A program made the position numbers and the translations under genes. The notes beneath the pieces were generated by a model, which was not told the DNA's origin, did not search any database, and was given only the letters and a program-made list of their open reading frames with translations. Source: Gammaproteobacteria bacterium (GTDB taxonomy: Bacteria; Pseudomonadota; Gammaproteobacteria; SURF-13). Taken from it: a stretch of 64,000 nucleotides of DNA. The stretch lies in the NCBI GenBank assembly GCA_016195665.1, contig JACPZD010000024.1, positions 99,130 through 163,129 of the forward strand, given 5' to 3'. Positions 8,588 through 60,793 of this stretch are shown one piece after another (positions within the stretch are counted from its first letter, which is position 1; each line of letters begins with the position of its first letter).

Positions 8588-8729
8588 CTCCTTAAGGGAT
8601 CTCTGATTTATTCATACTGAACCGCCAAGACGCCAAGAACGCCAAGATTTTTCCTTACAATCGTCAAGCTCTTTTCTTGGCGGCCTTGGCGCCTTGGCGG
8701 TTGGCGATATATTTTTCAGAGCTTCCTTA
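8588..8729. mobile_element. family-A MITE-like palindromic element (CCGCCAAGACGCCAAGAACGCCAAGA ... TCTTGGCG.CCTTGGCGCCTTGGCGG core, CTTAAGG.A.CTCTGA-type terminal inverted repeats)
   Basis: About 140 bp between the SnoaL-like gene and coq7; near-identical copies at 19808, 39136 and 50598. Confidence 0.8.
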
Positions 8730-8733
8730 ATAC

Positions 8734-9375
8734 ATGAATGCCCGAAAAATCTCACCGCTGGATAGTTTAATCATTGGCCTGGACCAGGCGTTGCGTACCG
8801 TGTGCACGCCGTCTCAGTGCAGCCGACCAGCGCCCGCCGCGCGGCACGATGACGCGGCGCTCAGTGCGTCTCACAGGGATGCGGCTGCGCGGCTCATGCG
8901 CGTCAATCATGCGGGCGAGGTCGCCGCGCAAGCCTTGTATCGCGGTCATGCACTCACCGCGCGCTCCCCAGCCGTTCGCGAGCACATGGAGCGCGCCGCA
9001 CAGGAGGAAACCGATCATCTGGCCTGGTGCGAACAGCGCGCGCAAGAGTTGGGCAGTCACATCAGCCTGCTCAACCCGCTTTGGTATGCAGGCTCATTCG
9101 CCATCGGCGCGCTGGCCGGGCTGGCGGGCGATAAATGGAGCCTGGGTTTTGTCGCGGAGACCGAGCGCCAAGTGGTCAAACATCTGGAGGATCACTTGAC
9201 GCGCCTGCCCGCCGGGGATGAGCAAAGCCGGGCCATCTTAGAACAGATGCGTGAAGATGAAGCGCAACACGCGACGGTGGCTATCGAGGCCGGCGCGGCG
9301 GAGTTGCCGGAAAGGGTGAAGAAGGCAATGGCGCTGACATCCACCGTGATGACCCGCAGCGCTTATTGGCTATAG
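8734..9375 (+). CDS. coq7: demethoxyubiquinone hydroxylase (ferritin-like di-iron, Coq7 family)
   Basis: 213 aa; di-iron ligand motifs ([10 protein letters not shown] ... EETDHLAW ... [10 protein letters not shown]) in Coq7 spacing. Confidence 0.85.
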
Positions 9376-9381
9376 GGCGCC

Positions 9382-10284
9382 TTATAAACGAGGTTTGGCC
9401 CTCGCCGCCGCCTTCGTGGGCTTTTTCTTTTTCTTCAGTTTCACCACCCCGCTCTTTTTCAGCTTACCCATCCTGGGTATGTTGCGCCCATAAAAAATCT
9501 CCGCCATTTCATGTTTCAGGCGCTGTTTGATGAGCTTGCGCTCCTCTTGTTCGAGACCCTCTTTGACCGTGCCGAACAGATAGTTGTTGAGGTCGAACTC
9601 CTTGAGCAGCATCTTGGTGTGGAAGATATTCTCCTGATAAACGTTGACGTCTATCATCTGATAGCGGTCTCGCGTCACCTTGGCGATGAAGTTTTGGATA
9701 GAGTTGATCTTGTGGTCAATAAAGTGCTTTTTACCGGAGACATCGCGGGTATAGCCGCGCACCCGGTAATCCATGATGACGATGTCGGAGTCGAAGCTGT
9801 GCACCAGATAATTCAACGCGCGCAGCGGCGAGATACGTCCGCAGGTGGACACGTCAATGTCGGCGCGAAAGGTGCTGATGCCATTGTCGGGGTGGCTCTC
9901 GGGATAGGTGTGCACGGTCACGTGGCTCTTGTCCAAATGGGCGACCACCGCCTCGGGCAGCGGGCCAGGGGCTTCCTCCATGCTGGGCAGCACGGCCTGC
10001 GGGATGTGCTCCTCAGAGATCAACATGGTCACACTGGCGCCTTGCGGGTCGTAGTCCTGGTGCGCGATGTTGAGGATGTTGGCGCCGATGATGTTGCATA
10101 CCTCGGTGAGGATGCTGGTAAGGCGTTCGGCGTTATATACCTCGTCAATATATTCGATGTACTCGCTGCGCTGCTTGGCGGTCTTGGCGTAGCAAATATC
10201 GTAGATATTGAAACTCAGGGTCTTGGTCAGGTTGTTAAAGCCGTGCAGCTTGAGCTTCTTGAGCGGCTTCACCATCCCGGACAC
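9382..10284 (-). CDS. speD: S-adenosylmethionine decarboxylase proenzyme (class I, E. coli type), with a Lys-rich C-terminal tail
   Basis: N-term [27 protein letters not shown] is near-identical to E. coli SpeD. The extra roughly 30-aa tail [27 protein letters not shown] is unusual. Confidence 0.9.
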
Positions 10285-12000: not shown

Positions 12001-12075
12001 CCACACAAAGACGCAAAGACGCGAAGATTATTAGAGATATATGTCTTTGCGTTCTCTGCGACTCGGCGTCTATTC
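12001..12075. repeat. degenerate family-A variant (CAAAGACGCAAAGACGCGAAGA ... TCTTTGCGTTCTCTGCG)
   Basis: trpC-trpD spacer; same architecture as family A with CCAAGACGC changed to CAAAGACGC. Confidence 0.55.
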
Positions 12076-12084
12076 GTGCGGTTA

Positions 12085-13104
12085 TCACTTAAAACTCTGG
12101 GTAAAGCTAATCAGTGCTGCGAATTTCTCCCTCGCCGCTCCGCTGGCGATAACCGCCTGCGCCTTACGCACGCCCTGCTCCAGGGTAGGCTCGATGCCCG
12201 CCACGTAAATTGCCGCGCCGGCGTTCAATGCCACGATGTCGGTGGCCGGGCCCGGCGTGTCGTCCAACGCGGCGCATAGTAAGCTCAAGCTTTGCTTGGG
12301 GCTCGCCACCACCAGGCTCGCCACATCGGCGCGCATGATGCCGAACTCCTCCGGCGTAATCACGTAGCGGGTGATCGCCCCGTCTTTGAGCTCGGCGACG
12401 TGCGTGGGCGAGGCGATGCTGATCTCATCCATGCCATCCTCGGCGTTCACCACCATCACATGATGGCTGCCCAGGCGCGCGAGCACTTCGGCCAAGGGCG
12501 CCACCCAATCTTTGCCCCACACGCCCACCACTTGATTGCGCGCGCCGGCGGGATTGGTGAGGGGTCCCAGTAAATTAAAAATGGTGCGCACGCCCATCTC
12601 GCGCCGCGGCGCAATGGCGTGCTTCATCGCGCCGTGATGTCTGGGCGCGAACAAAAAACCCACGCCGATCTTCTCTATGCACGCGGCAACCTGCTCGGGC
12701 GTCAAATCGAGATTCACGCCCGCCGCTTCCAGCACGTCGGCGCTGCCCGATTTGCTGGACACCGAACGGTTGCCGTGCTTGGCGACCTTGGCGCCCGCCG
12801 CAGCGGCGACCAGCGCGCTCGCGGTGGAGATGTTGAAGGTGTGCGCGCCGTCGCCGCCCGTGCCGCAGGTGTCCACCAGGCGCCCCACATGCGCCTCAAC
12901 CTTCGTGCATAGTTCGCGCATCACGCGCGCCGCGGCGGCGATCTCCTCGATGGTCTCACCCTTCATGCGCAGGCCGATCAAGAAACCACCGATCTGTGCG
13001 GGCGTGGCCGCCCCGCTCATGATGGTTTCCATGACGGCGGTCATCTCGTCCCCGGATAAATCATGCCGCTCGACTACGGCGCGGATGGCGGATTGGATGT
13101 CCAT
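12085..13104 (-). CDS. trpD: anthranilate phosphoribosyltransferase
   Basis: 339 aa; [18 protein letters not shown] and [19 protein letters not shown] motifs. Confidence 0.95.
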
Positions 13105-13163
13105 TTAGGCGGGCTCACGCAAAGGCGCTAGGGCGCAATAGCTGTTTATCGAGTATGTTCCCA

Positions 13164-13775
13164 TTATGTAGCTCTTGGCGTCTTTGCGTCTTGGCGTGAA
13201 ATCCTTAGAAAGTTCGCCAATAAATCGTGTCCATATTGGGTCAGTATGGATTCAGGGTGAAACTGAACGCCTTCGACGTTGAGCGTCTTGTGACGCACAC
13301 CCATGATCTCGTCCATCTTGCCTTGCGCGTCTTGCGTCCACGCGGTGACCTCCAGACAGTCCGGCAACGTTTCCTTTTCAATCACCAGCGAGTGATAGCG
13401 TGTCGCCTCGAACGGACTCGGCAAACCCTTGAAGACACCCTTGCCCGTGTGATAGATCAATGAGGTCTTGCCGTGCATCAATTCGCGCGCGTGCATGATC
13501 TTGCCACCGAACGCCTGGCCGATGCTCTGGTGGCCGAGGCACACGCCGAGCAGCGGTATTTTTCCAGCGAATTCCTTTATCGTATCCACCGACACACCCG
13601 CCTCGTCCGGCGTGCACGGCCCAGGCGAGATGACGATGTGCGCGGGCGTGAGTTTTTTGATTTCGGCGAGCGTGATCTGATCGTTGCGAAACACGCGCAC
13701 GTCAGCGCCCAGCTCATCCAGGTACTGCACCAGGTTGTAGGTGAAGGAGTCGTAGTTGTCTATCATCAGGAGCAT
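13164..13775 (-). CDS. trpG: anthranilate synthase component II (glutamine amidotransferase)
   Basis: Internal start [19 protein letters not shown]...; catalytic GVCLGHQ and HPES motifs. The listed ORF carries a 34-aa spurious N-extension. 10-nt overlap with trpE. Confidence 0.9.
13165..13215. repeat. partial family-A half-element (TCTTGGCGTCTTTGCGTCTTGGCG)
   Basis: trpD-trpG spacer; matches one arm of the family-A core. Confidence 0.5.
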
Positions 13776-15325
13776 GGTGTTACCTCCGGCACCGTGACAG
13801 GGGTGACATCGAGGCCTCTGGATGCCGTCACCGCTGCGCTCACCAGGGCGCGCGCCTTGCTCATGGTCTCTTCCCATTCCTGACGCGGCACCGAATCCGC
13901 GACGATGCCCGCGCCCGCCTGCACGTGCAGCATGCCGTCTTTGAGGACGGCGGTGCGGATCGCAATCGCGGTGTCCATGTTGCCGTTCCAGCCGAGATAT
14001 CCCACCGCGCCGGAATATATACCGCGCTTCACCGGTTCCAGTTCGTCAATGATTTCCATGGCACGGATTTTTGGCGCACCGCTCACCGTGCCTGCCGGAA
14101 AAGTAGCACGCAAGGCGTCCAACGCCGTCATGCCCTTTTTTAAGCGCCCCGCGACGTTGGAGACGATGTGCATGACATGTGAATAACGCTCGATGATCAT
14201 TTTCTCCGTAAGCTTCACGCTGCCGGTCTCGGCGACACGCCCCACGTCGTTGCGCCCCAAGTCTATCAACATCAAATGTTCGGCGCGCTCTTTCGGATCG
14301 GCGAGCAGCTCCTGCTCCAGCGCGCGGTCCTCCTCTTCGGTACCACCGCGCCTGCGCGTCCCGGCGATAGGGCGTACGGTAATCACGCCGTCTTCCAGGC
14401 GCGTCAAGATCTCCGGCGAGGAACCGACCACATGAAAATCGCTGAGATCCAGATAAAACATATAAGGCGACGGGTTCAGCGCGCGCAGCGCGCGGTAAAA
14501 ATTCAACGCGCTGCCTGCATACGGCGCAGTGAGGCGCTGCGACAACATCACCTGCATGATGTCGCCTTCCACGATGTAATGCTTGACGCGCGCGACGGCT
14601 TGTTCAAAACCCTGTTGCGTGAAGCCGGACACGAAATCCTCTTCGCGTAGGGTATGCACGGTGTCATGCGGATGCGGTGTAGCATGCTGCAATCGCTCGA
14701 CGAGTTCGTCGAGCCTGGCCTGCGCCTTGTTCCAGGCATCTTCCAACGCGGGATTGACGTGGATCACCAGATACAGTTTGCCGCTCAAATTATCGAACAC
14801 CACCACTTCATCCGATACCATGAGCAGAATGTCCGGCGTGCCGAGCGCGTCGGGTTTGGTGCACTTGGCCAGGCGCGGCTCGATGTAGCGCACCGTACCG
14901 TAACCGAAGTAACCGACCAGCCCCCCGGTGAAGCGCGGCAGTCCCGCCGCGGGCGCTATTTTGTAGCGCGCCTGAAACTGCTCGATCCAGGTCAGCGGAT
15001 CGTCGCTCTGCATGCGCTCAATAATCGCACCGTCTTTTTCCACCGTGATGTCATGACCGGAGACGCGCATGATGGTGCGGCAGGGGAGTCCGATGATGGA
15101 GTAGCGCCCCCACTTTTCACCGCCCTGCACCGATTCGAATAAGTATGAATAAGGCGCGGTCGCTCCCGGCATCCTGCCTCCCGCGACACTAGTATGTCCT
15201 TGTGCGTCGTCGGCGAGTTTGAGGTAGGCACTGAGCGGCGTGTCGAGGTCGGCACAGACCTCGCGTACCAGCGGAATGCGGTTATAACCCTGGCGCGCCA
15301 GGGCGTCGAATAGTTGCGGTGTCAT
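13766..15325 (-). CDS. trpE: anthranilate synthase component I, carrying a 17-aa in-frame insertion near the N-terminus
   Basis: 519 aa; LLESVQGG-type motif ([19 protein letters not shown]) and C-terminal chorismate-binding domain. The sequence [17 protein letters not shown] interrupts the normally contiguous LKLAD-AP-YS region. Confidence 0.95.
15158..15208 (-). repeat. 51-nt in-frame coding-embedded element, copy 1 (in trpE)
   Basis: Sense strand cGACGCACAAGGACATACTAGTGTCGCGGGAGGCAGGATGCCGGGAGCGAC; translated [17 protein letters not shown]; 48/51 identical to the copies in lysA and gpmI. Confidence 0.9.
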
Positions 15326-19338: not shown

Positions 19339-19782
19339 TTAAGACACTCTGGGAGGGGGCTCATTGATAAGCAGCCAGTACAGACCCAGTTGCCGCACTG
19401 CCTCTACGAACTGCACGAAATCCACCGGCTTGCGGATATAGCTGTTGGCGCCGAGACGGTAGCCGTTGATCAGGTCTTGCTCTTCTCTGGAGGAGGTCAG
19501 GATCACCACCGGTAAATAGGAAGTCACGGGGTGACCGCGCAGTTGCCTCAAAACTTCGAGCCCGTCTATCTTGGGCAATTTCAAATCCAGCAAGATAAGT
19601 TGCGGGAGGCCATCTTCGTCGCGTCCCTGATAACTGCCCTGGGCAAACAGATAGTCCAGCGCCTCCGCCCCGTCGCGCGCCACGATGATTTCATTGGCGA
19701 TGTTATTTTTGTTGAAGGCGCGCAGGGTCAGCGCCTCGTCATCGGGGTTGTCCTCAACCAGCAGAATGATTTTCTGTTCCAT
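19339..19782 (-). CDS. stand-alone response regulator receiver (CheY-like)
   Basis: About 147 aa from MEQKIILLVEDNPDDEALTL...LILLDLKLPKIDGLEVL; no output domain. Lies between the CHASE kinase and the REC-GGDEF-EAL protein. Confidence 0.85.
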   Translation of the reverse strand: MEQKIILLVEDNPDDEALTLRAFNKNNIANEIIVARDGAEALDYLFAQGSYQGRDEDGLPQLILLDLKLPKIDGLEVLRQLRGHPVTSYLPVVILTSSREEQDLINGYRLGANSYIRKPVDFVQFVEAVRQLGLYWLLINEPPPRVS

Positions 19783-19807
19783 AAAGGCGCCCATCGCAAA
19801 CGCTTAT

Positions 19808-19945
19808 AGGGAAACTCTGAAAAATATATCGCCAACCGCCAAGGCGCCAAGGTCACCAAGAAAAAAGGCTTGAATTTGTAAAGAAAAGTCTTGGCGTTCT
19901 TGGCGTCTTGGCGGTTCAACATGCATAAATCAGAGCTTCCTGCTG
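19808..19945. mobile_element. family-A MITE-like element
   Basis: GGGAAACTCTGAAAAATATATCGCCAACCGCCAAGGCGCCAAGGTCACCAAGAAAAAAGGCTTGAATTTGTAAAGAAAAGTCTTGGCGTTCTTGGCGTCTTGGCGGTTCAAC...CAGAGCTTCC, almost base-for-base identical to 39136..39270; between the REC gene and the CHASE kinase. Confidence 0.85.
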
Positions 19946-19999
19946 AAAGTAATTGAGACTCAGTCTCACAGCGTTAGCAGGCTGTTGAAAATCTCATTT

Positions 20000-22201
20000 T
20001 CAACAGCCTGTTAGGGTATGGTCGCCGAGGCTGAAATAGAAGGTGGCGCCCCGTCCCACCTCCCCTTCGGCCCACACCCGTCCGCCGTGGCGGGAGATAA
20101 TGCGCTGTACCGTGGCGAGCCCGACACCATGCCCTTCAAATTCGGCCGCGGGATGGAGGCGCTGAAAGGGCGAGAACAGCTTACCGGCATAGGCCATATT
20201 GAATCCCGCCCCGTCATCGCGTACGAAATAGACGGCCCTGCCGTCCTCCACGAGCGCGCCGAATTCGATTCTGGCCTGCGGATGCCTGCGGGTAAACTTC
20301 CAGGCATTGGCGAACAGATTGGTCAACACCACCCGCAGCAGGCGCGCATCTCCGACGGTGCTCAGCGCCGGCGCGATGACGATCTCCGCCGCGCGCTCCG
20401 GATCGGTCTTGCGCAGATCGGCGGTGATCTCTTTGGCGAGGGGGCTCAAGTCCACTCGCTCGCGGCGCAGTTCGCTGCGGGTCACCCGCGCCAGTTCCAA
20501 CAAATCGTCAATCAGCACGGCCATGTGCTGGCTCGCGCCGCGCACGCGCTGCAAATAACCGAGGGCGGCGGCGTCCAGCTGTGCGCCATAGTCCTCGAGC
20601 AGGGCCTGGCTGAAGCCGTTGATGGAACGCAGCGGCGCGCGCAAGTCGTGGGAGACCGAGTAGCTGAAGGCCTCCAGTTCCTGGTTGGCGGCGGCGAGCT
20701 CGGCGGTGCGTTCCTGCACCCGCTGCTCCAACTCCGTGTTCAGCATCTGCACATGACTCTCGGCCCGTTTGCGCTCGGTGATGTCTTGCAGTGTGCCCAC
20801 GATGCGGACCGGTTTGCCGGCGGCGTCGGTGATGACCTCGGCATGGTGGTAGACGAACCGCTCCCGGCGATCGTTTGCGCCCAGGCGATGATCTATGCCG
20901 AAAGACTGTTGCGCGTTAAGCGCGGCATCCAGGTGTTTTTTGACCAGCGCCAAATCCTTCGGGTGTATCACATTCAGCAGGGCCTGATAATCCGGCGCCG
21001 TTGCGCCTCGCGTGAGGCCGCACAAGTCATATAATTCGTCCGACCAGCGCCAGCTGTAGTCGGCGAGATTCACCTCCCAACTGCCCATCCGGCCGATCTG
21101 CTGGGCGCGCGCGAGATTGGCCCGGTTTTCCCGCAATTCGCTGGCGATGCGCTGGTCCTTGATGCGGGCGTTTACCTGGTTACGGGTAATCCAGAACAGC
21201 AGCAGGCTGAGCGCTATCCCCCCGCCTAATACGATCCACGGCAGTTCCAGGTTGAGGTCCTGGTCGAATTGCGGCAGGGTGGAGAAGTGCAGGGTCCAGA
21301 TATGGCCGGCAACCTCCAGCTCAGAGGTGCGGAGGAAACGCGCCCGGTAAGACGGATCCAGGGCATGCGCTACGCCGTCATCATCATAGAGCAGTGTGGC
21401 ACGGTTCAGGGTGCGGCCGTCAAACACCTCAAAATCCACCTGGGGATGATTTTGTTTCAGGTAGATGTCGCGCAATAGCTCATGAGCGCGAAACACTCCG
21501 CTCACATAACCTTGCAAGGCATCACGCCGTTGCTGCACCGTGTCGAGGGCGGCGCCGTTGCGATAGACCGGCACAAACAACAAAAAGCCGGGTTGGTCAT
21601 CCGGCCCCTCGACCAGGCGCGGAATTCTGCTTCCCAAAGAGGGGAGACCGGTATCGCGGGCCCGCGCCAGCGCGTCTAGGTTCATGGGCGCCTTCACATC
21701 GAATGCCAGCGCCAGAGGCGTAAAGGGCTCAATGAGTTCGATGGGAAAATAGTCCCGCGCTTTTTTATGCAACAAGCCGGTGCGGCCACTTTCTAGATCC
21801 CACGCACGATAGTCGCCCAGCCCATCGTGCTTGAGCCGCGCGTGAAACGCCTCCAAGGTCGCCGGCGTCTCACGGGGGGTGTATTGAATCGCAGCGAGCC
21901 CCGGGTAACGCCCGGCAACGTTAATAGTGCCGACATAGTTGCGAAACTCGGCGCGCGTTACCGACTCGCTTGCGGCGAACAGGGCGCGGGCGGCCCGTAA
22001 GACGTCTATGTAGCGATCCATGCGCCGCTCCAGCCAGACGCGCGTGGTCTCCACCGCTGCATCAAAGCGGACTTTGGCCTGGGCTTCCACCATCAGCGTG
22101 TCGCGATACGCCTCCACGCCGGTGACCAGCAGGCCGACCAGCAACACCCCATACGGCAACCACTGACGCAATCCTTTGGTATCGAATTTATTCAGTGGCA
22201 T
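20000..22201 (-). CDS. CHASE-domain sensor histidine kinase (CHASE-TM-PAS-HisKA-HATPase)
   Basis: 733 aa; N-terminal TM + periplasmic CHASE-like region, PAS, H-box [20 protein letters not shown]-terminal ATPase G-boxes. Confidence 0.85.
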
Positions 22202-22768: not shown

Positions 22769-22850
22769 GGGGCTACGAGTGAGGCGTAAGGGGTGAGGAG
22801 TGAGGAGGAACACCACTTTAACACCTCACGCCTCACTCCTCACGTGCCTT
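22769..22850. repeat. family-D palindromic element
   Basis: GGGGCTACGAGTGAGGCGTAAGGGGTGAGGAGTGAGGAGGAACACCACTTTAACACCTCACGCCTCACTCCTCACGTGCC between moaE and moaD. Confidence 0.8.
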
Positions 22851-26990: not shown

Positions 26991-27941
26991 ATGCATAGCC
27001 ACGATCATTATGCAGCAATGGAAAAACCGGTGGTTGCGGGAACAGACCATCATGGCCACTCCCATGCGCGCGGCGAGGGGAACCGCCGGTTGCTGGGTTA
27101 TGCGTTCATAGTCACGCTGCTGTTTGCCGCCGTAGAGGGCGTGAGCGGCTGGTGGGCGGGTTCGCTGGCCTTGCTGGGTGACGCCGGCCACATGGTGAGC
27201 GACGCCAGCGCCTTGGCGCTGGCCCTGCTCGCGGCCTGGGTGGCGCGCAGCCCTGTGTCGGCGCGCCATTCTTACGGCTTGGGCCGGGCCGAGGTGGTGG
27301 TGGCTTTGTTTAATGGCTTACTGATGCTGGCCATCGTCGCGGGCATCGTGGTGTCGGCGATTGAGCGTCTGCGCGCCCCTACTCCGGTCATGGCCGGCGC
27401 CGTCATCGTGGTGGCGGCCTTGGGTCTGCTGGTCAATCTGGCGGTGGCTGTTCTGCTCAGCCGCGGCGAGCAGACCCTTAATCTGCGCGCCGCGTTGCTG
27501 CACGTGATGGCGGATCTGCTCGGCTCGGTCGCCGCGCTTGCCTCGGGCGTGGTGATTTATCTCACCGGCTGGGCCGCCATAGACCCTATCCTGTCCCTGT
27601 TCATCTGCGTATTGATTCTCTACTCCAGCATCCACCTGCTGCGCGAGGCGCTGCACGTCATCATGGAAGGCGTGCCGCCGGGTCTGGACTTACCGGAGAT
27701 CGGCTGCGCGCTTGCGACGGTTAAAGGTGTGCGTTCGGTGCATGACCTGCACATCTGGACGCTGTCTTCGGGCATGGTCGCGCTTTCAGCCCACATCATG
27801 GTGAGCGACCTCGCGCACTGGGAGGAAACATTGGCCGGACTGCGCACGCTGCTGCACGACCGTTACGGCATCGAACACGTCACCCTGCAGCCGGAGCCGA
27901 CGACGCATATCTTGAGGCCGTTGAAATACCCGCAAATGTAA
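26991..27941 (+). CDS. cation diffusion facilitator family divalent metal efflux transporter (CzcD-like)
   Basis: 316 aa; His-rich N-terminus, six TM segments, conserved HxxxD motifs (LGDAGHMVSD, LHVMADLLGS), C-terminal cytoplasmic domain. Confidence 0.9.
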   Translation: MHSHDHYAAMEKPVVAGTDHHGHSHARGEGNRRLLGYAFIVTLLFAAVEGVSGWWAGSLALLGDAGHMVSDASALALALLAAWVARSPVSARHSYGLGRAEVVVALFNGLLMLAIVAGIVVSAIERLRAPTPVMAGAVIVVAALGLLVNLAVAVLLSRGEQTLNLRAALLHVMADLLGSVAALASGVVIYLTGWAAIDPILSLFICVLILYSSIHLLREALHVIMEGVPPGLDLPEIGCALATVKGVRSVHDLHIWTLSSGMVALSAHIMVSDLAHWEETLAGLRTLLHDRYGIEHVTLQPEPTTHILRPLKYPQM

Positions 27942-27944
27942 TTT

Positions 27945-28062
27945 ATCGCAGAGGACGCAGAGAGGAACGCAAGCAAAAATACACAAACCGCGGAGGACGC
28001 GGAGAAATAAGGTCAAAAAGATTCAGCTTTCCCCCCGCGTCCTCCGCGGTGACGATTTTAAT
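27945..28062. repeat. family-B element, compound/duplicated copy
   Basis: …CGCAGAGGACGCAGAGAGGAACGC…ACCGCGGAGGACGCGGAGAAATAAGG…CCCGCGTCCTCCGCGGTGACG; between the CDF gene and typA. Confidence 0.75.
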
Positions 28063-28067
28063 GCGGT

Positions 28068-31107: not shown

Positions 31108-31144
31108 TTAGGGAACCTCTGACTTAATCAGAGGTTCCCTAAAT
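31108..31144. repeat. family-E perfect palindrome GGGAACCTCTGA.TTAATCAGAGGTTCCC
   Basis: TTAGGGAACCTCTGACTTAATCAGAGGTTCCCTAAAT in the VIT-xseB spacer. Confidence 0.8.
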
Positions 31145-34440: not shown

Positions 34441-34896
34441 ATGGCCGCCCTGTACACCCTCAAGATTCTGACCGATTTCGCCAGCGCCCACACCCTGCGT
34501 GACTACCCCGGCGACTGCAGCCGCATGCACGGCCACAACTGGAAGGTGGAGGTCGAGGTCATCGCGCGGCACTTGGATGAGGTGGGCATGGGCTTGGATT
34601 TCAAGGTCATCAAAGAGGCGACCCGCGCACTCGCCCAACGGCTCGACCATCACTATTTGAACGACATCGAGCCGTTTGACAAGGTCAATCCGACCGCGGA
34701 AAACATAGCCGCCTATTTTTATCAGGGTCTGTCGCAGCGTCTCAATAATCCGCGCGTGCGGGTGAGCGCCGTCACGCTGTGGGAGACGGATCGCGCCTGC
34801 GTGCGTTACAGCGACGAGGCGGTCGAAGGGGAACCTCTGATTAAATCAGAGGTTCCCGCGATACAGGGATGTATTGCCATTACTCAATCGCATTAA
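34441..34896 (+). CDS. queD: 6-carboxy-5,6,7,8-tetrahydropterin synthase with a roughly 25-aa C-terminal extension encoded by a palindromic repeat
   Basis: Core CSRMHGHNWKVEVEV... and WETDRACVRY match QueD/PTPS. The tail EGEPLIKSEVPAIQGCIAITQSH is translated from a family-E palindrome (34838..34866) and the hairpin that follows. Confidence 0.85.
   Translation: MAALYTLKILTDFASAHTLRDYPGDCSRMHGHNWKVEVEVIARHLDEVGMGLDFKVIKEATRALAQRLDHHYLNDIEPFDKVNPTAENIAAYFYQGLSQRLNNPRVRVSAVTLWETDRACVRYSDEAVEGEPLIKSEVPAIQGCIAITQSH
34838..34866. repeat. family-E palindrome embedded in the 3' end of queD
   Basis: GAACCTCTGATTAAATCAGAGGTTCCC, translated in frame as ...EGEPLIKSEVPA... in the QueD tail. Confidence 0.8.
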
Positions 34897-37585: not shown

Positions 37586-37655
37586 CGCCGGCCGAATAAA
37601 TTCGGCCCTACCCTATGAAGGGCGACATGTCGTAGGGCCGAATTTATTCGGCCGG
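37586..37655. terminator. 25-bp perfect inverted repeat with 20-nt loop; each arm is itself a hairpin (GGCCGAATAAATTCGGCC), giving a cloverleaf-capable bidirectional terminator-like structure
   Basis: GCCGGCCGAATAAATTCGGCCCTAC-(20 nt)-GTAGGGCCGAATTTATTCGGCCGGC starting 7 nt after the trHb stop codon. Confidence 0.6.
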
Positions 37656-37674
37656 CAATGTTATGGAGTCTTGA

Positions 37675-39135: not shown

Positions 39136-39270
39136 TTAAGGAAACTCTGAAAAATATATCGCCAACCGCCAAGGCGCCAAGGTCACCAAGAAAAAAGGCT
39201 TGAATTTGTAAAGAAAAGTCTTGGCGTTCTTGGCGTCTTGGCGGTTCAACATGATCAGAGCTTCCTTAAG
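39136..39270. mobile_element. family-A MITE-like element with perfect CTTAAGGAA.CTCTGA / TCAGAGCTTCCTTAAG termini
   Basis: Between lptM and lysA; CTTAAG ends read like target-site or TIR boundaries. Confidence 0.85.
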
Positions 39271-39304: not shown

Positions 39305-40600
39305 ATGCAACCCTTCACCTATCGCAATAACCGGCTGTTCGCCGAGGACGTGGATCTTGGAGTCCTCGCCGATCTCTACGGCACGCCGTGTTATGTCTAT
39401 TCGCGCGCGGCGATGGAGGAACGCTGGCGCGCCTTCGATCAGGCGTTTGCCGGGTGCAGGCATCTGGTCTGCTACGCCGTCAAGGCCAACTCCAATCTCG
39501 CCGTGCTCAACCTGCTGGCGCGGCTGGGTTCGGGCTTTGATATCGTCTCGGGCGGAGAGCTGGAGCGTGTCCTGGCTGCGGGGGGCGATCCCGGCAAGGT
39601 GATTTTTTCAGGTGTCGGCAAGACCGGCATGGAGATGCAGCGTGCCCTGGAGGTTGGCATTCTGTGTTTCAACGTCGAGTCCGAGGCCGAACTGGAATGT
39701 CTCAATGAGGTCGCGGGACGCCTGGGACGGCGCGCGCCGGTCTCGCTGCGCGTGAATCCCGATATTGACGCGCGCACTCATCCTTATATCTCCACCGGCC
39801 TCGCCGGAAACAAGTTCGGGATAGACATTACCGCCGCCCATGAGGTCTACCGGCGGGCTGCGGCGATGCAGCACATCGAGGTGCTGGGCGTGGACTGCCA
39901 TATCGGTTCGCAGTTGACCGAAGTCGAGCCTTTTGTGGAGGCTCTTGAGCGGGTATTGTCCCTGGTGGACAGGCTAGAGGATGATGGCATCGCACTCCGC
40001 CATCTGGATCTCGGCGGCGGACTGGGCATCCGGTATTCGGACGAGACGCCGCTGGAGCCCGCGCAATACGCCGCGGCATTGCTTCCGCAACTCAGGAACC
40101 GGGATTATCAAATTTTGATTGAGCCCGGACGCGCCATCGCCGGCAACGCCGGGATCTTGTTGACCCGGGTCGAATATATAAAGCATAGCCGGCACAAGAA
40201 CTTCGTGATCGTGGACGCCGCCACGAACGACCTCATACGGCCCGCCCTGTATAATGCCTACCATGCCATCCGGCCGGTGCAGGAGCGTACCGGCGACGTA
40301 CAGGGACATACTAGTGTCGCGGGAGGCAGGACGCCGGGAGCGACCGAGGCGCAGATCTATGATGTGGTCGGCCCGGTGTGCGAAAGCGGCGATTTTTTGG
40401 GCCGGGATCGCAGCTTGAACGTGCAACGCAACGATCTTCTGGCGATCTTTTCGGCGGGCGCCTATGGTATGAGCATGAGCTCCAATTACAACACCCGCCC
40501 GCGCGCGGCGGAGGTGATCGTGGACGGCGCCCGGCACCACCTTGTGCGCGCACGCGAGACGGTGGTGGAACTGTTTGCGGGCGAAAAACTGTTGCCGTAG
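39305..40600 (+). CDS. lysA: diaminopimelate decarboxylase, carrying the 17-aa in-frame insertion
   Basis: 431 aa; PLP site CYAVKANSN, C-terminal VVGPVCESGDFL; insertion [17 protein letters not shown] just before the conserved YDVVGP. Confidence 0.95.
   Translation: MQPFTYRNNRLFAEDVDLGVLADLYGTPCYVYSRAAMEERWRAFDQAFAGCRHLVCYAVKANSNLAVLNLLARLGSGFDIVSGGELERVLAAGGDPGKVIFSGVGKTGMEMQRALEVGILCFNVESEAELECLNEVAGRLGRRAPVSLRVNPDIDARTHPYISTGLAGNKFGIDITAAHEVYRRAAAMQHIEVLGVDCHIGSQLTEVEPFVEALERVLSLVDRLEDDGIALRHLDLGGGLGIRYSDETPLEPAQYAAALLPQLRNRDYQILIEPGRAIAGNAGILLTRVEYIKHSRHKNFVIVDAATNDLIRPALYNAYHAIRPVQERTGDVQGHTSVAGGRTPGATEAQIYDVVGPVCESGDFLGRDRSLNVQRNDLLAIFSAGAYGMSMSSNYNTRPRAAEVIVDGARHHLVRARETVVELFAGEKLLP
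40294..40344 (+). repeat. 51-nt in-frame coding-embedded element, copy 2 (in lysA)
   Basis: cGACGTACAGGGACATACTAGTGTCGCGGGAGGCAGGACGCCGGGAGCGAC; translated [17 protein letters not shown]. Confidence 0.9.
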
Positions 40601-41311: not shown

Positions 41312-42652
41312 ATGACGATGCTGACACCTAAGGAAATCGTCCAGGAACTGGACAAACACATCATCGGCCAGGGCGCGGCGAAGCGTGCGGTGGCGATTGC
41401 GCTCCGCAACCGCTGGCGGCGCGGGCAGGTCAGCGAGGACTTGCGCAATGAGATCACGCCCAAGAATATTCTGATGATCGGTCCGACCGGCGTGGGCAAG
41501 ACCGAGGTCGCGCGCCGCCTCGCCAAGCTGGCCAGCGCGCCGTTCATCAAGGTTGAGGCCACCAAATTCACTGAGGTGGGTTACGTGGGGCGTGATGTGG
41601 AATCCATCATCCGCGACCTGCTGGACACCGCCATCAAGATGACGCGCGAGGAAGAAATGAAAAAGGTGCGGCACCGCGCCGAGGAGAGCGCCGAGGAGCG
41701 CATCCTGGATATCCTGCTGCGTCCCGCACGCCAGCCGGCCTTTGTTCCGTCCGATGCGGCGGTGGTTGCGGAAGAGTCGTCTACGCGCCAGACCTTTCGC
41801 AAAAAACTGCGCGAAGGCGAATTCGATGAGCGTGAGATCGAGGTCGAACTCAGCGCCGTTCCCATTGGCGTGGAGATCATGGCGCCGCCCGGCATGGAGG
41901 AGATGACCAGTCAGTTGCAGGGGATGTTTCAAAATCTTGCCGGCAGCCGCACCCGTACCCGCAAGCTGCGCGTCAAGGAGGCTTTTAAATTGCTGACCGA
42001 TGAAGCGGCAGCCAAGCTCATAGATGAAGAGGCCCTCAAGACCCGCGCCATACAAAACGTCGAGCAGAACGGCATCGTATTCATAGACGAGATAGACAAG
42101 ATCACCTCGCGATCGGAACGTATGGGAGCGGATGTCTCGCGCGAAGGCGTGCAGCGCGATCTGTTGCCGCTGGTGGAAGGGAGTACGGTGTCCACCAAGT
42201 ACGGCATGGTCAAGACCGATCATATTCTGTTCATCGCATCGGGCGCGTTTCATCTTTCCAAGCCCTCCGATCTCATCCCCGAATTGCAGGGCCGCCTGCC
42301 GATACGTGTCGAACTGGATGCGCTGGGCGCGCAGGATTTTGTGCGTATTTTGACCGAGCCGGACGCCTCACTTACTGAGCAATACAGCGCGCTGTTGGCG
42401 ACCGAGGGTGTACACTTGAGTTTCACGCCGGACGGCATTTCCCGCCTCGCCGAGATCGCCTGGCAGGTCAACGAGCGCACCGAGAACATCGGCGCACGCC
42501 GGCTGCATACGGTGATGGAGCGTCTGCTGGAGACGATCTCCTTCGGTGCGTCAGAGCAAGCGGGTCAGAGCTTCGAGATCAACGCCGCATACGTGGACGA
42601 ACATCTCCGCGAACTGGCAGAGAATGAGGATTTGAGCAGGTATATACTTTGA
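41312..42652 (+). CDS. hslU: ATP-dependent protease ATPase subunit HslU
   Basis: [20 protein letters not shown]..., Walker [16 protein letters not shown]. Confidence 0.95.
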
Positions 42653-42917
42653 AGGCTGATACAAGAGGAAAGATACAAGATACAAGAGGGATAAAGTTTG
42701 TACTTTTCTCTTGTATCTTTTCTCTTGTATCTGTACCTATGCGCCCCACTGAAATCAAGCTGCACCAAAAATCGCGGATCTGAGCAGGTATATACTTTGA
42801 AGGCTGATACAAGAGGAAAGATACAAGATACAAGAGGGATAAAGTTTTGTACTTTTCTCTTGTATCTTTTCTCTTGTATCTGTATCTATGCGTCCCACTG
42901 AAATTAAACTGCATCAA
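42640..42917 (+). repeat. roughly 138-bp tandem duplication (two units, 42640..42777 and 42778..42917) spanning the hslU 3' end, a GATACAA-heptamer hairpin, and the 5' end of the DUF971 gene
   Basis: Unit sequence TGAGCAGGTATATACTTTGAAGGCTGATACAAGAGGAAAGATACAAGATACAAGAGGGATAAAGTTTGTACTTTTCTCTTGTATCTTTTCTCTTGTATCTGTA.CTATGCG.CCCACTGAAAT.AA.CTGCA.CAAAAATCGCG repeats with about 5 mismatches and 1 indel. The first unit carries a truncated copy [14 protein letters not shown] (42739..42783). Confidence 0.9.
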
Positions 42918-43241
42918 AAATCGCGCATGCTGGAGATCAGCTTCGACGACGGCGCCCGTTTCGATCTGCCCTGCGAGTACCTGCGCGTGTATTCGCCCTC
43001 GGCGGAGGTGCGCGGTCACGGCCCCGGTCAGGAGGTGTTGCAGGTGGGCAAGGAGCAGGTCAACATCAGCGCCATAGACCCGGTCGGCAGCTATGCGGTG
43101 CGCCTGCATTTCGATGACGGCCACAACACGGGGCTTTATTCGTGGGATCTGCTCTATGAGCTCGGTGCACATCGGCAGGAAAAATGGCAGGCCTATCTGG
43201 AACGGCTGCAGCGGGCAGGTCACACGCGCAAAGAAGCATGA
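42888..43241 (+). CDS. DUF971 (gamma-butyrobetaine hydroxylase-like N-terminal domain) protein; first 13 codons are duplicated upstream
   Basis: 117 aa, conserved partner upstream of ubiE. Its start ([13 protein letters not shown]) recurs at 42739..42783 inside the tandem duplication. Confidence 0.7.
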
Positions 43242-47849: not shown

Positions 47850-47878
47850 GGAATCTCTGATTTATCAGAGATTCCATA
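47850..47878. repeat. family-E-like palindrome AGGAATCTCTGATTTATCAGAGATTCCAT
   Basis: Between the two small membrane-protein genes; same CTCTGA.TT.A.TCAGAG core as family E and the family-A termini. Confidence 0.7.
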
Positions 47879-48037: not shown

Positions 48038-48217
48038 GTTCAACTCCTTTGTTTAATGGGGTCAATTGCCAGGTTAATGTCAATCTACCCCATTTATTAA
48101 GCGACATTTTCAAAACGAATGCAAATAATTGTGTGCCTTGTCAGGGGGCGGAATAACGGGGCTGATACTTAGAGCATATCCATAAATAGTTCCCCTGTGT
48201 CCCTTGCGGTGAAAAAG

Positions 48218-48288
48218 CTTCACCGCGGAGGACGCGGAGGAGAAACAAATCCTTCTTGATTCCTCTGCGCCCTCTGCGGTAAATTATT
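48218..48288. repeat. family-B palindromic element
   Basis: CTTCACCGCGGAGGACGCGGAGGAGAAACAAATCCTTCTTGATTCCTCTGCGCCCTCTGCGGTAAATTA; upstream of the lmo0937-like gene and sulP. Confidence 0.8.
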
Positions 48289-48393
48289 TATGGATAAGTT
48301 CTTAGATGCTTTGGGATATTTTGGGTTACGACAAATGCCTAGCCGGTCCTACGAATACCGCGAGCTACTCGTCATGAACGGTTTTAATCAGCT

Positions 48394-50031
48394 CTAGTGT
48401 TTCTCCGCAGCATTCAACGCCGCCAGCAAATCGGGATAGACATTCTCTGCGCCCAGCTGATCTAGGATGCCGGCCTGGGTCAGCTTTCTGGTCACGCGTT
48501 CATTGGCCTCGCAGATGATGATGCGTTTGTGCTTATTCTGAAACAGCTCGATCATCTCGTGGAAGGTTTGCATCGCGGTGGCATCGACGAACGGGACGCG
48601 TGCCAGGCGGATGATCAATACCCTGATGTCACCGTTTAACTCCATCATCGTGTTCTCGAAGGTTTCGGCGGCGCCGAAAAAAAACGGCCCGTCGATGGAA
48701 TAGATTTGCACGCCTTTGGGAATGCCGATCACGCAGTAATCCGGCAACAGGGTAGCGATTTCCTCGCTGTTGATGCCTTCGATGCGCACCGACTCCGCCA
48801 TGCGCTTCATGAACAGCAATGCGGCCAGGATCACGCCGACATTGACCGCAATCACCAGATCCACAAATACGGTGAGAAAAAATGTAATCAGCAACACGGC
48901 GACATCGCTGCGCGGGCTGCTCTTCACCAGATGTGCAAAGTGGCGCAGCTCGCTCATGTTATAGGCCACCACAAACAGAATGGCGGCGAGCGCGCACATG
49001 GGGATGTAAGCGGCATATGGCGCGAGTGCCAGCAGGATGAGCAGCAAGACCGCCGAGTGGGTGATGCCGGCGAGCGGGCTTGTGGCGCCGTTGCGGATGT
49101 TGGTGGCGGTGCGGGCGATGGCGCCGGTGGCGGCGAAGCCGCCGAACAGCGGGGTCACCATGTTGGCCAGCCCCAGCCCGGTCAGCTCCTGATTGGAATT
49201 ATGCCGTGTGCCGGTCATGCCGTCGGCCACGACTGCCGAGAGCAATGATTCAATCGCGCCCAGCATCGCAATGGTGAAGGCCGGCCCGATGAGCTCGATG
49301 ATATGCGTAAAGCTGACTTGCGGCAGCTTGAACTCGGGCAGGCCCTGGGCCAGGCCGCCGAACACACTGCCGATGGTCGCTACACCGTCGAATTTAAACA
49401 GCACTTGCAGCAGTGTGACTACCAGCATGGCAACGAGAGGGCCGGGGACGCGCCTGATGAATTTCGGAGTGAGGATCGCGAGCGCGAGCGCCGTAAGCGC
49501 AAGGCCGGCGGTCGCCAGATGCGGGTGCGGCAAGGCTTGCAGCAGGCTCCAGAACTTCTGGTGAAAATGTGTTCCCGCGGATGGCGGATGCAGGCCGAAA
49601 AAATCCTTCCACTGGCCCACCCAGATGATGACCGCGATGCCTGTGGTAAAGCCGACCACGACCGGATTGGGAATGAATTTTATCAGCGCGCCCAGGTTGG
49701 CGAGGCCCATTACGACGAGGATCAGGCCCGCCATCAAGGTGGCGAGTTGCAGGCCGTCGAAGCCGTATTTTGCTGTAATACCGGCGAGGATAACGATGAA
49801 GGCCCCGGTGGGGCCTGAGATTTGCATCCGGCTACCGCCCAGCACCGCAGTGAGCAAGCCCGCGATCACGGCGGTATAGATGCCTTGTTCCGGTTTGGCG
49901 CCGGAGGCGATGGCAAACGCCATGGCGAGGGGGAGCGCCACTACGCCGACGATAACTCCGGCGAGCAGATTGGGGAGGATGTGTCCGCGCCCAAACAGTC
50001 CGGCGCGGCTGGCTTCAAGAAAGGCGATCAA
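48394..50031 (-). CDS. SulP family anion transporter with C-terminal STAS domain
   Basis: 545 aa; SLC26/SulP TM core and C-terminal STAS (...RVLIIRLARVPFVDATAMQTFHEM). Confidence 0.9.
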   Translation of the reverse strand: MIAFLEASRAGLFGRGHILPNLLAGVIVGVVALPLAMAFAIASGAKPEQGIYTAVIAGLLTAVLGGSRMQISGPTGAFIVILAGITAKYGFDGLQLATLMAGLILVVMGLANLGALIKFIPNPVVVGFTTGIAVIIWVGQWKDFFGLHPPSAGTHFHQKFWSLLQALPHPHLATAGLALTALALAILTPKFIRRVPGPLVAMLVVTLLQVLFKFDGVATIGSVFGGLAQGLPEFKLPQVSFTHIIELIGPAFTIAMLGAIESLLSAVVADGMTGTRHNSNQELTGLGLANMVTPLFGGFAATGAIARTATNIRNGATSPLAGITHSAVLLLILLALAPYAAYIPMCALAAILFVVAYNMSELRHFAHLVKSSPRSDVAVLLITFFLTVFVDLVIAVNVGVILAALLFMKRMAESVRIEGINSEEIATLLPDYCVIGIPKGVQIYSIDGPFFFGAAETFENTMMELNGDIRVLIIRLARVPFVDATAMQTFHEMIELFQNKHKRIIICEANERVTRKLTQAGILDQLGAENVYPDLLAALNAAEKH

Positions 50032-50597: not shown

Positions 50598-50715
50598 AGA
50601 GTTGAACCGCCAAGACGCCAAGAACGCCAAGATTTTTCCTTCAATTCAAGCCTTTTTTCTTGGTGATCTTGGAGCCTTGGCGGTTGATGATATATTTTCA
50701 GAGTTTCCCTAGGTT
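50598..50715. mobile_element. family-A element, inverted orientation, left terminus truncated
   Basis: GTTGAACCGCCAAGACGCCAAGAACGCCAAGATTTTTCC...TTCTTGGTGATCTTGGAGCCTTGGCGGTTGATGATATATTTTCAGAGTTTCCCTAGG; between ctpA and the DJ-1 gene. Confidence 0.8.
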
Positions 50716-53477: not shown

Positions 53478-53525
53478 GAGAACGCTTATCTTGTATCTTG
53501 TATCTTTTCCCTTGTATCTGGTTCT
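53468..53525. repeat. family-C GATACAA/TTGTATC heptamer-array hairpin
   Basis: GATACAAGCATGAGAACGCTTATCTTGTATCTTGTATCTTTTCCCTTGTATCTGG between gpmI and envC. Confidence 0.75.
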
Positions 53526-55122
53526 AATGAACAAACTCCACCAGGCTATCGCCGCTCATCTCGGAGGGGATGTCCAAGTTCATAAGGTGCAGCAGGGTCG
53601 GGGCGACATCGGCCAGGGTCCCGCCTTTGGTCATCTTGGCGGGCCGGCCGACGTAGATCAACGGCACCGGGTTGGTGGTATGCGCGGTGTGCGCCTGACC
53701 GGTGCCCTCGCCGATGAGCTGCTCCGCGTTGCCGTGATCGGCGGTGACGAGCAACTCGCCGCCGACCTTTTTTAGGGCCTCGACGATGCGACCGAGGCAG
53801 GCGTCTATGGTTTCAATCGCCTTAACGGTGGCGTCAAGGTTGCCGGTATGTCCGACCATGTCCGGGTTGGCGAAGTTGCAGATGACGGTATCGTAGGTGC
53901 GGCTCTCGATGGCCTGCACCAACTGGTCGGTGAGTTGCACCGCGCTCATCTGCGGCTGCAAGTCGTAGGTAGCGACGTGCGGCGAGGGGATCAGGATGCG
54001 ATCTTCGCCCACAAACGGCTGCTCCTCTCCGCCGTTAAAAAAGAAGGTCACGTGCGCGTATTTTTCGGTCTCGGCGATGCGCAGTTGACGTAAACCCTGT
54101 TCCGCGACATAGGCCCCGAAGACGTTTTTCAGGCGCTCCGGCGGAAAGGCCACCGGCACGGGGAAGTCCTCGCTGTAATCGGTGAGGGTGACAAAGCCGC
54201 CGAGCTTGGGCATGGCCTCGCGCCTGAAACCGGTGAAGTTCGGCTCGATGAAGGCGCGCGTGATCTGGCGCGCACGGTCGGAGCGGAAATTCATGAAGAT
54301 CACCACATCGCCGTCCTCGATGCGCACCGGTTGTTGAGTCGCTCCCGGCATCCTGCCTCCCGCGACACTAGTACTTCCCTGTACGTCGCCCTGCGGAACG
54401 ATGGCGGTGGCCTTGACGAACTCGTCGGACTCGCCGCGCGCATAGGCCATCTCGAGGGCCTGCATGGCGGTCTCGGCGCGAAACTCCGCCTTTCCCAGCG
54501 TGATGAGGTCGTAGGCCGCTTGAATACGCGGCCAGCGGTGATCGCGGTCCATCGCGTAATAGCGGCCTATGATCGAGGCGAAGCGGCCCTTGCCCAAGGC
54601 ATCGAACTTATCCTGCATGGCCTTGATGGAAGCCGTCGCGCTCTTTGGCGAGGTATCGCGGCCGTCCAAAAAGGCGTGCAGATACACGCGCGCCGCGCTG
54701 CGCCGCGCCGCCAATTCGGCCATGGTGTGGATGTGCTCTTCATGGCTGTGCACGCCGCCGTCGGACAGCAGCCCCAGCATGTGCACCGCCTTGTTATTGG
54801 CGACGGCCTGATCCACGGCCTTGGTCAACGCCTCGTTGGTGAAGAACGAACCGGTCTTGATGGCGCGGCTGATGCGGCTGAATTCCTGATAGACGATGCG
54901 TCCCGCGCCGAGATTGAGGTGCCCCACCTCGGAATTGCCCATCTGATCGGCGGGCAGGCCGACATCCGTCCCCGAGGTGCTGATGAGCGTGTGCGGGTAA
55001 TTTTTCCAAAGGCCGTCCCACACCGGTTTGCGGGCGGCGAGTATGGCGTTGCCTACCGGATTTTCGCTATAGCCCCAGCCATCCAGAACGATGAGCACCA
55101 TGGGGCGATGTGTCAAAGGCAT
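53524..55122 (-). CDS. gpmI: 2,3-bisphosphoglycerate-independent phosphoglycerate mutase, carrying the 17-aa in-frame insertion
   Basis: Start [20 protein letters not shown]; catalytic Ser region [12 protein letters not shown]; insertion [17 protein letters not shown] within ...ATAIVPQG|...|[10 protein letters not shown]. Confidence 0.95.
54338..54388 (-). repeat. 51-nt in-frame coding-embedded element, copy 3 (in gpmI)
   Basis: Sense strand cGACGTACAGGGAAGTACTAGTGTCGCGGGAGGCAGGATGCCGGGAGCGAC; translated [17 protein letters not shown]. Confidence 0.9.
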
Positions 55123-60787: not shown

Positions 60788-60793
60788 TCTCAA

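Follow-up and report, generated by a model that had tools for sequence, protein, structure and literature searches.

The 64,000-nt stretch examined here, from an uncultured member of the Gammaproteobacteria (contig JACPZD010000024.1, positions 99,130 to 163,129 of the forward strand; hereafter the window), contains several copies of a short, hairpin-forming element that we refer to as Family A. The best overall explanation, and one in which we place high confidence, is that Family A is a non-autonomous MITE (a miniature transposable element with inverted repeats) that duplicates 4-bp, YTAR-like target sites and is moved in trans. That it is non-autonomous and recently mobile, with its enzyme encoded elsewhere, is strongly supported, and we call it a MITE because its small size, lack of an open reading frame (ORF), terminal inverted repeats (TIRs), target-site duplications (TSDs), dispersed copies and filled/empty polymorphism were each tested for and observed. 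The recent mobility suggested in a preliminary description of this DNA is borne out by 4-bp duplications specific to individual copies, by empty sites in close relatives and by further copies in the metagenome of another organism.

Reading of the relevant regions together with repeat detection across the window identified four related elements of ~110-131 bp, at, or a few bases from, the positions first proposed for them (8588, 19808, 39136 and 50598). All four had been taken as full copies; four related elements do exist, but only three are full length: copy 1 (8596..8726, minus strand, 131 bp), copy 2 (19810..19940, plus strand, 131 bp), which serves as the reference for orientation, and copy 3 (39140..39265, plus strand, 126 bp, with a 5-nt deletion relative to copy 2). 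Copy 4 (50600..50708, minus strand) is truncated: at one end the TIR is missing, together with the 13-nt inner flank and the host sequence next to it. Copies 1 and 4 are therefore inverted with respect to copies 2 and 3. A 30-nt block, TCTTGGCGTTCTTGGCGTCTTGGCGGTTCA, is invariant across all four, and the window holds 11 occurrences of the motif CCAAGNNGCCAAG where 1.5 would be expected, a count that none of 100 shuffles reached. As noted earlier, copies 2 and 3 are nearly identical, at 99% over 117 ungapped nt, or 96% when the 5-nt indel is counted.

All four window copies fold as long hairpins (z = -5 to -9 against shuffles); the full copies reach -56 to -62 kcal/mol (z = -7.4 to -9.1, with no shuffle equally stable) and fold equally well on both strands. 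The body is a two-tier hairpin in which an outer TIR stem is followed by an internal loop, an inner stem and a terminal loop. In the reference copy the outer stem consists of the 11-nt ends GGAAACTCTGA (19810..19820, plus strand) and TCAGAGCTTCC (19930..19940, plus strand), each identified both in the fold and in the alignment described below, and the internal loop is symmetric, with 13+13 non-complementary nt (AAAATATATCGCC / CAACATGCATAAA). The inner stem of 28 bp is the long palindrome of repeated units that had been described: its left arm in the fold (19834..19861, plus strand) is AAC plus three CGCCAAG-type units separated by 1-2-nt spacers, and its right arm (19889..19916, plus strand), invariant in the four window copies, is the complement, three CTTGGCG units plus GTT. 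A ~27-nt A/T-rich loop closes the inner hairpin. Rfam 15 gave no match at gathering threshold anywhere in the window, and a permissive Rfam scan of 19700-20050 gave only spurious miRNA-hairpin matches far below threshold. A BLAST search of the PLSDB plasmids with one copy as query returned only a 33-nt match to an arm on a Nostoc plasmid, and a full-text literature search on the element, TIR and unit sequences found no relevant paper.

Scanning metagenomes with a 21-nt pattern that spans the inner flank and the first unit returned eight loci, of which seven are further Family-A copies (six of them from metagenome Ga0184616) and the eighth is a chance coding match. The seven are 71-89% identical to the window copies, and their flanks are unrelated except for other shared short repeat families. 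An alignment of these 11 copies, four from the window and seven from metagenomes, defines 11-bp TIRs, GGRAWCTCTGA / TCAGAGWTYCC. The left TIR is present in 11/11 copies and, together with AAAAATATATC, is nearly invariant.

Immediately outside the TIRs, copy 1 is flanked by TTAA on the left (8592..8595) and again on the right (8727..8730, ending 3 nt before the ATG of COQ7), and copy 3 likewise by TTAA at 39136..39139 and, matching it, at 39266..39269. The intact end of copy 4 lies beside CTAG (50709..50712), which comparison with empty sites in relatives (L142 and L141, below) marks as its target. Flanks of metagenome copies read TTAG/TTAG (L126), CTAA/CTAA (L124) and TTAT/TTAG (L128). Because TTAG/TTAG and CTAA/CTAA are direct and not inverted repeats, they lie outside the TIR and are TSDs, and it follows that the 'CTTAAGG' terminus originally proposed is a TSD joined to the first bases of the TIR. 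Perfect 4-bp TSDs flank four copies in three different sequences (TTAA twice, TTAG, CTAA), and three of the four bases match in two more. The target sites, TTAA, TTAG, CTAA and CTAG, are all YTAR-like. At 126-131 bp, almost wholly hairpin and without coding sequence, Family A falls within the size range of a MITE, roughly 50-500 bp.

Syntenic contigs of relatives, reached via homologues of COQ7, the response regulator and UbiB, are 92-97% identical to the window in the closest relatives and ~80-90% identical in more distant ones. Four of them (L131-L134) have an empty site in the SnoaL-COQ7 spacer, reading ...CTAATGAACTCC TTAG TACATGAATGCCC, where the window reads ...CTAATGAACTCC TTAA, 131 bp, TTAA TACATGAATGCCC: a clean insertion, which in alignment with L131 and L133 appears as a 129-nt gap with a 6-nt overlap and which ends 7 nt before the COQ7 ATG at 8734. 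In the DJ-1-S41 peptidase spacer, L142 preserves the empty site ...CCTTCTAG CGTGCGTTACTCC CTAG TTTACGG (L141 has CTGG), and in the window the intact end of copy 4 abuts CTAG-(G)TTTACGG. The other side of copy 4, compared with L142, is missing 14 nt of host flank as well as the TIR, its inner flank and the TSD that would be expected there; insertion at CTAG was followed by a deletion of ~45-50 bp. The histidine kinase-response regulator spacer of L137 has ~125 bp between ...TTACTTTCAGC and TAATAAGTGC..., and copy 2 occupies the exact place of this segment in the window; that copy 2 has intact TIRs and yet no TSD is thus explained by the loss of ~125 bp beside it, that is, by insertion together with an adjacent deletion. 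An empty site for copy 3 was not found, as no record of the flanking decarboxylase exists and the sole contig reaching the site from the left breaks inside the element. The TIR pattern was not found in any fetched syntenic locus of the relatives (L131-L142), and we therefore conclude that Family A expanded in the lineage of the window and in the Ga0184616 organism. Contigs assembled from short reads of the window's own organism stop within Family-A copies, at 8701 and at 39164, the latter being the break of Logan contig L143, 25 nt inside copy 3. Breaks of this kind indicate multiple copies per genome.

These comparisons bear directly on two ways in which the copies might have come to resemble each other without transposition. 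One is that they are immobile, conserved cis-regulatory hairpins (terminators or attenuators), alike through common function or ancient duplication. Their intergenic positions and very stable hairpin would suit such a role, as would the fixed hairpins that relatives share in the trp spacers (see below). However, close relatives whose COQ7 is 96-97% identical to that of the window lack the elements in these spacers, copies 2 and 3 are 96-99% identical despite unrelated flanks, the three copies scanned have no T-run terminator, and Rfam gives no match; for Family A this account is refuted by the insertion polymorphisms and TSDs, and we give it almost no credence. The other is that homologous recombination or gene conversion, acting between scattered intergenic hairpins, multiplied the copies. 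Whole spacers have indeed been replaced between relatives without obvious junction signatures, and copies 2 and 4 accompany the loss of adjoining sequence, but copy-specific 4-bp duplications and single-copy targets at empty sites are the signature of transposition, and gene conversion offers no reason for 4-bp duplications to be created at all. Spread by recombination is accordingly highly improbable.

All four window copies are intergenic, as first described, and three of the four lie 7-30 nt from a start codon; the adjoining genes encode COQ7, a response regulator, a decarboxylase and DJ-1. The genome has a GC content of 60%, with a GC content at third codon positions (GC3) of 0.7-0.85 in coding sequence, and YTAR, which contains the stop codons TAA and TAG, is rare in high-GC3 coding sequence here while common at stop codons and in AT-rich spacers. 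Several metagenome copies sit directly on a stop codon (in L129, ...TTT TAA followed by the GG of the TIR; in L125, ...AAC TGA followed by GG). The availability of YTAR together with purifying selection against gene disruption would be enough to explain why copies are found at gene boundaries.

Each full copy (all three were scanned) has one sigma-70-like match, TTGGCG-16 nt-TATATT, directed outward through the adjacent TIR, with TTGGCG supplied by a repeat unit and TATATT by the conserved inner flank. In copy 1 this promoter-like site (8686..8713, plus strand), a consensus match only, faces COQ7, whose ATG lies 21 nt past the -10 hexamer; in copy 2 (19823..19850, minus strand) it faces the response-regulator gene, the native upstream region of which has been deleted. 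Once inserted, Family A would put a hairpin of ~-60 kcal/mol into the transcript, and its AAAAATATATC end would carry a weak, predicted outward promoter of the sigma-70 type. Read-through could then be stopped or processed at the hairpin, with the gene downstream possibly driven anew from the promoter, as happens with Correia elements. The roles first suggested for the copies, as terminator, attenuator or mRNA stabiliser, are likewise hypothetical; the only terminator-like match in the scanned regions is a separate small hairpin at 19954-19968.

Since Family A encodes nothing, a transposase encoded elsewhere in the genome must move it in trans. In keeping with the non-autonomous status first proposed, Pfam scans of ~40 window ORFs revealed no transposase, recombinase or HUH domain, the relatives' gene tables contain no transposase, and no TIR pair 0.6-4 kb apart encloses a transposase ORF in the window or in the 143 fetched loci. 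The one long-range TIR pair consists of two mini-palindromes with the xseB-ispA-dxs operon between them and does not represent a transposon. The 4-bp YTAR duplication and a TIR starting with GG suggest that a DDE enzyme of the IS5 / PIF-Harbinger type would most likely move Family A. The TIR of IS5 itself, GGAAGGTGCG, resembles that of Family A only in GGAA. YTAR is the reported TSD motif of IS5 (PMC10359306). Readings of the repeat unit as an attC site, a sigma-54 promoter, a DNA-uptake sequence or a tRNA-like structure were set aside, the motifs or spacings not fitting by eye.

The preliminary description looked instead to a REP-associated tyrosine transposase (RAYT) or an IS200/IS605-family enzyme, in which case Family A would be a palindrome of the repetitive extragenic palindromic (REP) or REPIN type, mobilized as single-stranded hairpin DNA by an enzyme of the HUH class. 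The long hairpin is compatible with this, as are the solo and paired arms that both exist in other genomes and the lack of a TSD in 39 of the 43 simple CGCCAAG hairpin pairs listed there, and a GTAG-tagged REP doublet is present in the window itself (37587-37656). RAYT and IS200/IS605 transposition makes no TSD, however, and direct 4-bp duplications with clean empty sites are not HUH products. Nor do the Family-A arms end in a GTAG or CGTC tag, and no Y1 transposase was found among the Pfam-scanned window ORFs or in the relatives' gene tables. Mobilization by such an enzyme is thus largely refuted and strikes us as highly unlikely.

It is important to note the observations that weigh against an IS5-like MITE with effects on its neighbours. 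The right TIR is recognisable in only ~7 of the 11 copies and is degenerate or missing in the other four, and a perfect TSD is present in only 4 of ~7 scorable copies. At the site of copy 1 the relatives have TTAG where both TSD copies of the window have TTAA, a mismatch explained most simply by one extra substitution that preceded insertion. The enzyme family is deduced from the TSD alone, no autonomous parent having been found in the window or the 143 loci, and other transposase families that make 4-bp duplications are possible movers. Compensatory covariation was absent among the 11 copies (0 of 30 pairs), giving no sign of selection on structure, a result that we attribute to the copies being too similar. 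The promoter match is just 9/12 and comes with no evidence of function, in the other two copies the promoter end faces the 3' end of the neighbouring gene (judged by eye for the copy at 50600), and no T-run follows the hairpin in the three scanned copies.

How Family A acquired its two-tier form is a separate question. It probably arose when a tandem-unit hairpin came to lie within a short TIR-pair palindrome, given that the inner flanks are non-complementary and that core-less TIR pairs exist in the window. Three such Family-A-like palindromes without a core (26-29 nt, with a 4-5-nt centre) were found: GGGAACCTCTGA-CTTAA-TCAGAGGTTCCC (29 nt, 31111..31139), GGGAACCTCTGA-TTAAA-TCAGAGGTTCCC (34829..34857) and GGAATCTCTGA-TTTA-TCAGAGATTCC (47850..47875), the surrounding 36 nt of the last being an indel relative to L142. 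Those at 31111 and 34829 bracket the xseB-ispA-dxs-PTPS block, and none was found in the fetched loci of relatives.

The core, by comparison, has a much wider distribution. About 18 hairpins in the window follow the same plan with different units, among them CGCRGAG-unit hairpins at 26886, 27935, 31150, 35935, 40648, 46330 and 48190, a GTGAGG-unit hairpin at 22780 and ATACAAG-unit hairpins at 42650, 42800, 53488 and 60680. Some spacers hold different units in different genomes: the one at 27909-28066 has CGCRGAG units in the window, GTGAGGN in L137 (18731-18888) and GGGGCTA in L139 (13557-13642), and that at 22780-22845 has GTGAGG in the window and L137 and GGGRCTA in L139. The flanks of these unit-swapped spacers are conserved base for base, and a given genome tends to employ its particular type of unit repeatedly, at several loci. 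The trpC-trpD spacer contains a further hairpin, of CGCAAAG units (12001..12075), and the trpD-trpG spacer another (13110..13205), with a CGCAAAG-like arm opposite a CTTGGCG/CTTTGCG arm. The two had been listed as degenerate Family-A copies, but they lack the TIRs and inner flanks and are kept, with few substitutions, in every relative examined. They do not belong to Family A but to the wider class of hairpins, of which they are older, fixed representatives.

A scan of one genome per species for three CTTGGCG units returned at least 120 loci (L001-L120), the phyla among the matches listed including Planctomycetota, Chloroflexota, Cyanobacteria, Myxococcota (Sorangium), Verrucomicrobiota and Acidobacteriota, with Gamma- and Betaproteobacteria, Lentisphaerae, Armatimonadota, Nitrospinota and others also represented. 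Within this listed set, 98 arms occur solo and 43 form pairs, which measure 55-248 nt overall with a median of 112. CCGCC has GAA in front of it in 21 of the 43 pairs, GGCGG has TTC behind it in 20, and 39 pairs lack a flanking direct repeat. At three spacer positions the arms form 59 Watson-Crick pairs out of 108, against 47.8 ± 4.6 when partners are shuffled; 59 of 5000 shuffles reach the observed count, which is not a strict probability as some loci are related. Across the listed phyla there are 19 G-T pairs to 11 A-C pairs, a difference that is not decisive on strand. Arrays of related units also occur in the listed loci (CACAGAG in six, CGCAGAG in three, CGCAAAG in three or four), and in Sorangium a CGCCAAG hairpin is enclosed by a longer repeated element with CTAG at its boundaries. 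ORF clustering of the 120 listed loci revealed no gene family linked to the hairpin, only generic kinases, response regulators and UvrA.

These observations raise the possibility that the inner tandem-unit hairpin is the true self-propagating unit, spreading or being regenerated without a TSD, and that Family A is a secondary composite in which such a hairpin was caught between two short TIRs and is now carried by a DDE transposase. Hairpins with GAA/CCGCC...GGCGG/TTC ends and no outer TIRs in at least 120 loci of many phyla, a different outer element in Sorangium and a second MITE family in the window (48173-48301, with TSD TTAG) that also carries such hairpins would all be accommodated, as would the core-less TIR-pair palindromes, the non-complementary 13+13-nt segments between TIRs and inner stem, the exchange of unit types in the same spacers of close relatives and the covariation of arms across phyla among the listed loci. 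Against this, no clean insertion junction of a simple hairpin could be reconstructed, no associated enzyme family lies nearby in the 120 listed loci, and growth in situ by slippage with arm-to-arm correction offers an alternative. The exact search pattern, moreover, inflates the apparent cross-phylum identity, although it does not account for the conserved ends or the covariation. On balance we regard self-propagation of the core as possible but doubtful. It is with similar reserve that we suggest that the CGCCAAG hairpin may belong to a superfamily of tandem-unit hairpins that spans phyla, TSD-less elements that either propagate themselves or are regenerated in a way that depends on the hairpin. 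Its units would follow C-R-C-N-R-A-G (CGCCAAG, CGCAGAG, CGCGGAG, CACAGAG, CGCAAAG) and its ends (G)AAC...GTT(C), an equally tentative definition, and its members might, still speculatively, show fast turnover at fixed intergenic sites, with repeated capture by unrelated MITEs (Family A, the element at 48173-48301 and that of Sorangium).

Several other repeats and inserts were seen alongside. The second MITE family (48173-48301) has TIRs AGCATATCCATAAATA / TATTTATGGATAAGTTC, with its TSD TTAG at 48169-48172 and 48302-48305, and encloses one and a half CGCGGAG-unit hairpins; another copy, 87% identical and with flanks TAAG/TGAG, is on a Ga0184616 contig (L125, 7413-7547). L141 (3782-11209) and L142 (5078-12360) have a hydrogenase-4 / complex-I-like cluster of 7.3-7.4 kb where the window has 1.7 kb (48175-49894). 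This replacement begins at the second MITE and contains it and a SulP/STAS sulfate permease gene (48394-50031). The truncated Family-A copy is found ~700 bp from the opposite end, on the far side of the DJ-1 gene. The ATACAAG-heptamer hairpins (GATACAAGATACAAG / CTTGTATCTTGTATC) occupy 42628-42928, 53488-53525 and 60674-60790, and in the first of these regions the whole 148-bp hairpin unit is tandemly duplicated (42628-42775 and 42776-42928, 93-99% identical). The REP doublet at 37587-37656 has two 25-nt arms, GCCGGCCGAATAAATTCGGCCCTAC ... GTAGGGCCGAATTTATTCGGCCGGC, that are perfect inverted copies of each other and are both palindromic in themselves, with a GTAG tag; it is a classical, REPIN-like doublet without a second example in the window and has no relation to Family A.

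Within coding regions, an insert of ~51 nt (GTCGCTCCCGGCATCCTGCCTCCCGCGACACTAGTA...) occurs in frame in three genes that are unrelated to each other, trpE (15163-15213), an Orn/DAP decarboxylase gene (40290-40346) and the iPGM gene (54338-54390). These inserts are 92-94% identical and keep a constant reading frame (...[T/M]PGAT...). The trpE insert is absent from the L135 orthologue and 98% identical in a metagenome contig (L128, 342-396), and a Logan contig ends within it (15185). It appears to be a mobile insert of coding regions, comparable to the Rickettsia palindromic elements. The COQ7-AdoMetDC spacer of two relatives (L131 5033-5191, L133 5074-5223) has a ~150-bp composite element, absent from the window and L135, in which a hairpin of CGCAGAG units is combined with the outer inverted repeats CCTAAAAAAGCC / GGCGTTTTTAGG; its flanks read ATAA/ATAA. 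Compared with L135, the window shows 12 additional, near-palindromic nt (TAGGGCGCCTTA) at the corresponding position (9375-9383), possibly a footprint. Finally, L137 (9625-9830) has an insertion of ~170 bp relative to the window (19975-20013), made up of several A/T-loop hairpins, bounded by duplicated CAGGYTGTTGAAAA and lying inside or beside the hairpin, terminator-like in form, that is found downstream of the gene for the CHASE histidine kinase. L131 has an insert of this kind at 12764-12921, and both appear to represent a further repeat family that targets TTGAAAA hairpins.

Family A is a sign that a transposase has recently been active in an uncultured lineage of the Gammaproteobacteria. 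Its insertions 7-30 bp from start codons, with the accompanying deletions, remodel the regulatory regions of housekeeping genes, and its copies explain the breaks of short-read assemblies at these points in this organism. Arrays of inverted heptamers and octamers have been described before and never explained, and a lineage in which core hairpins have demonstrably been moved and replaced provides a way to study them.

Among known systems, IS5-family MITEs are alike in having short TIRs that start with GG, a 4-bp YTAR duplication and non-coding derivatives mobilized in trans, and differ in that a parent IS5-type element with Family-A TIRs was not found in the window or the 143 loci. Their eukaryotic counterparts are the PIF/Harbinger 'Tourist' MITEs. 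PIF/Harbinger elements make 3-bp TWA duplications (PMC2213677), as opposed to the 4-bp YTAR of Family A. REP and REPIN sequences are similar in forming hairpin doublets and singlets at intergenic positions and in high copy number. They carry GTAG or CGTC tags (PMC3733652), whereas Family A has no such tag (its arms begin with GAAC/CAAC-CGCC and its TIRs with GGAA) and has a 4-bp TSD.

The Correia elements (CREE) of Neisseria and Family A are both hairpin-forming MITEs of the 100-200-bp class. In Correia elements the TIRs are 26 bp long, the duplication is TA, and a tandem-unit core is lacking. Correia elements typically lie immediately upstream of genes and have outward sigma-70-like promoters and transcript hairpins that are cut by RNase III (PMC10969869), whereas for Family A promoter and RNase III effects are predicted only; they are its closest functional counterpart. 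BrickBuilt, a MITE of Porphyromonas gingivalis, has tandem short repeats between small inverted-repeat ends, is always intergenic and carries promoter elements (PMC4596501), but its body is a direct 23-nt minisatellite and that of Family A consists of 8-9-nt units in two inverted arrays that form one long stem.

The inner hairpin, with its 3 + 3 CGCCAAG units, intergenic position and capacity to form a stem-loop, fits the description of paired inverted short-tandem-repeat arrays, in which two arrays of a 6-9-nt unit converge. The GGGAATC arrays of Xanthomonas include 70-75 convergent, stem-loop-capable pairs and vary extensively in length and sequence between close relatives (PMC4692102), and one heptamer is common to distant phyla, being present in Beggiatoaceae and cyanobacteria, with a transfer mechanism that is not known (PMC4679880). 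Like the core of Family A, these paired arrays (GGGAATC in Xanthomonas, GGGGAYT in Nostoc, the cyanobacterial STRR and TAACTGA in Beggiatoaceae) are intergenic and built of 7-nt units. In Family A, however, CGCCAAG is followed by one or two variable spacer bases (a period of 8-9), and the array has conserved ends, GAAC...GTTC, and lies within a transposon bounded by TIRs and a TSD.

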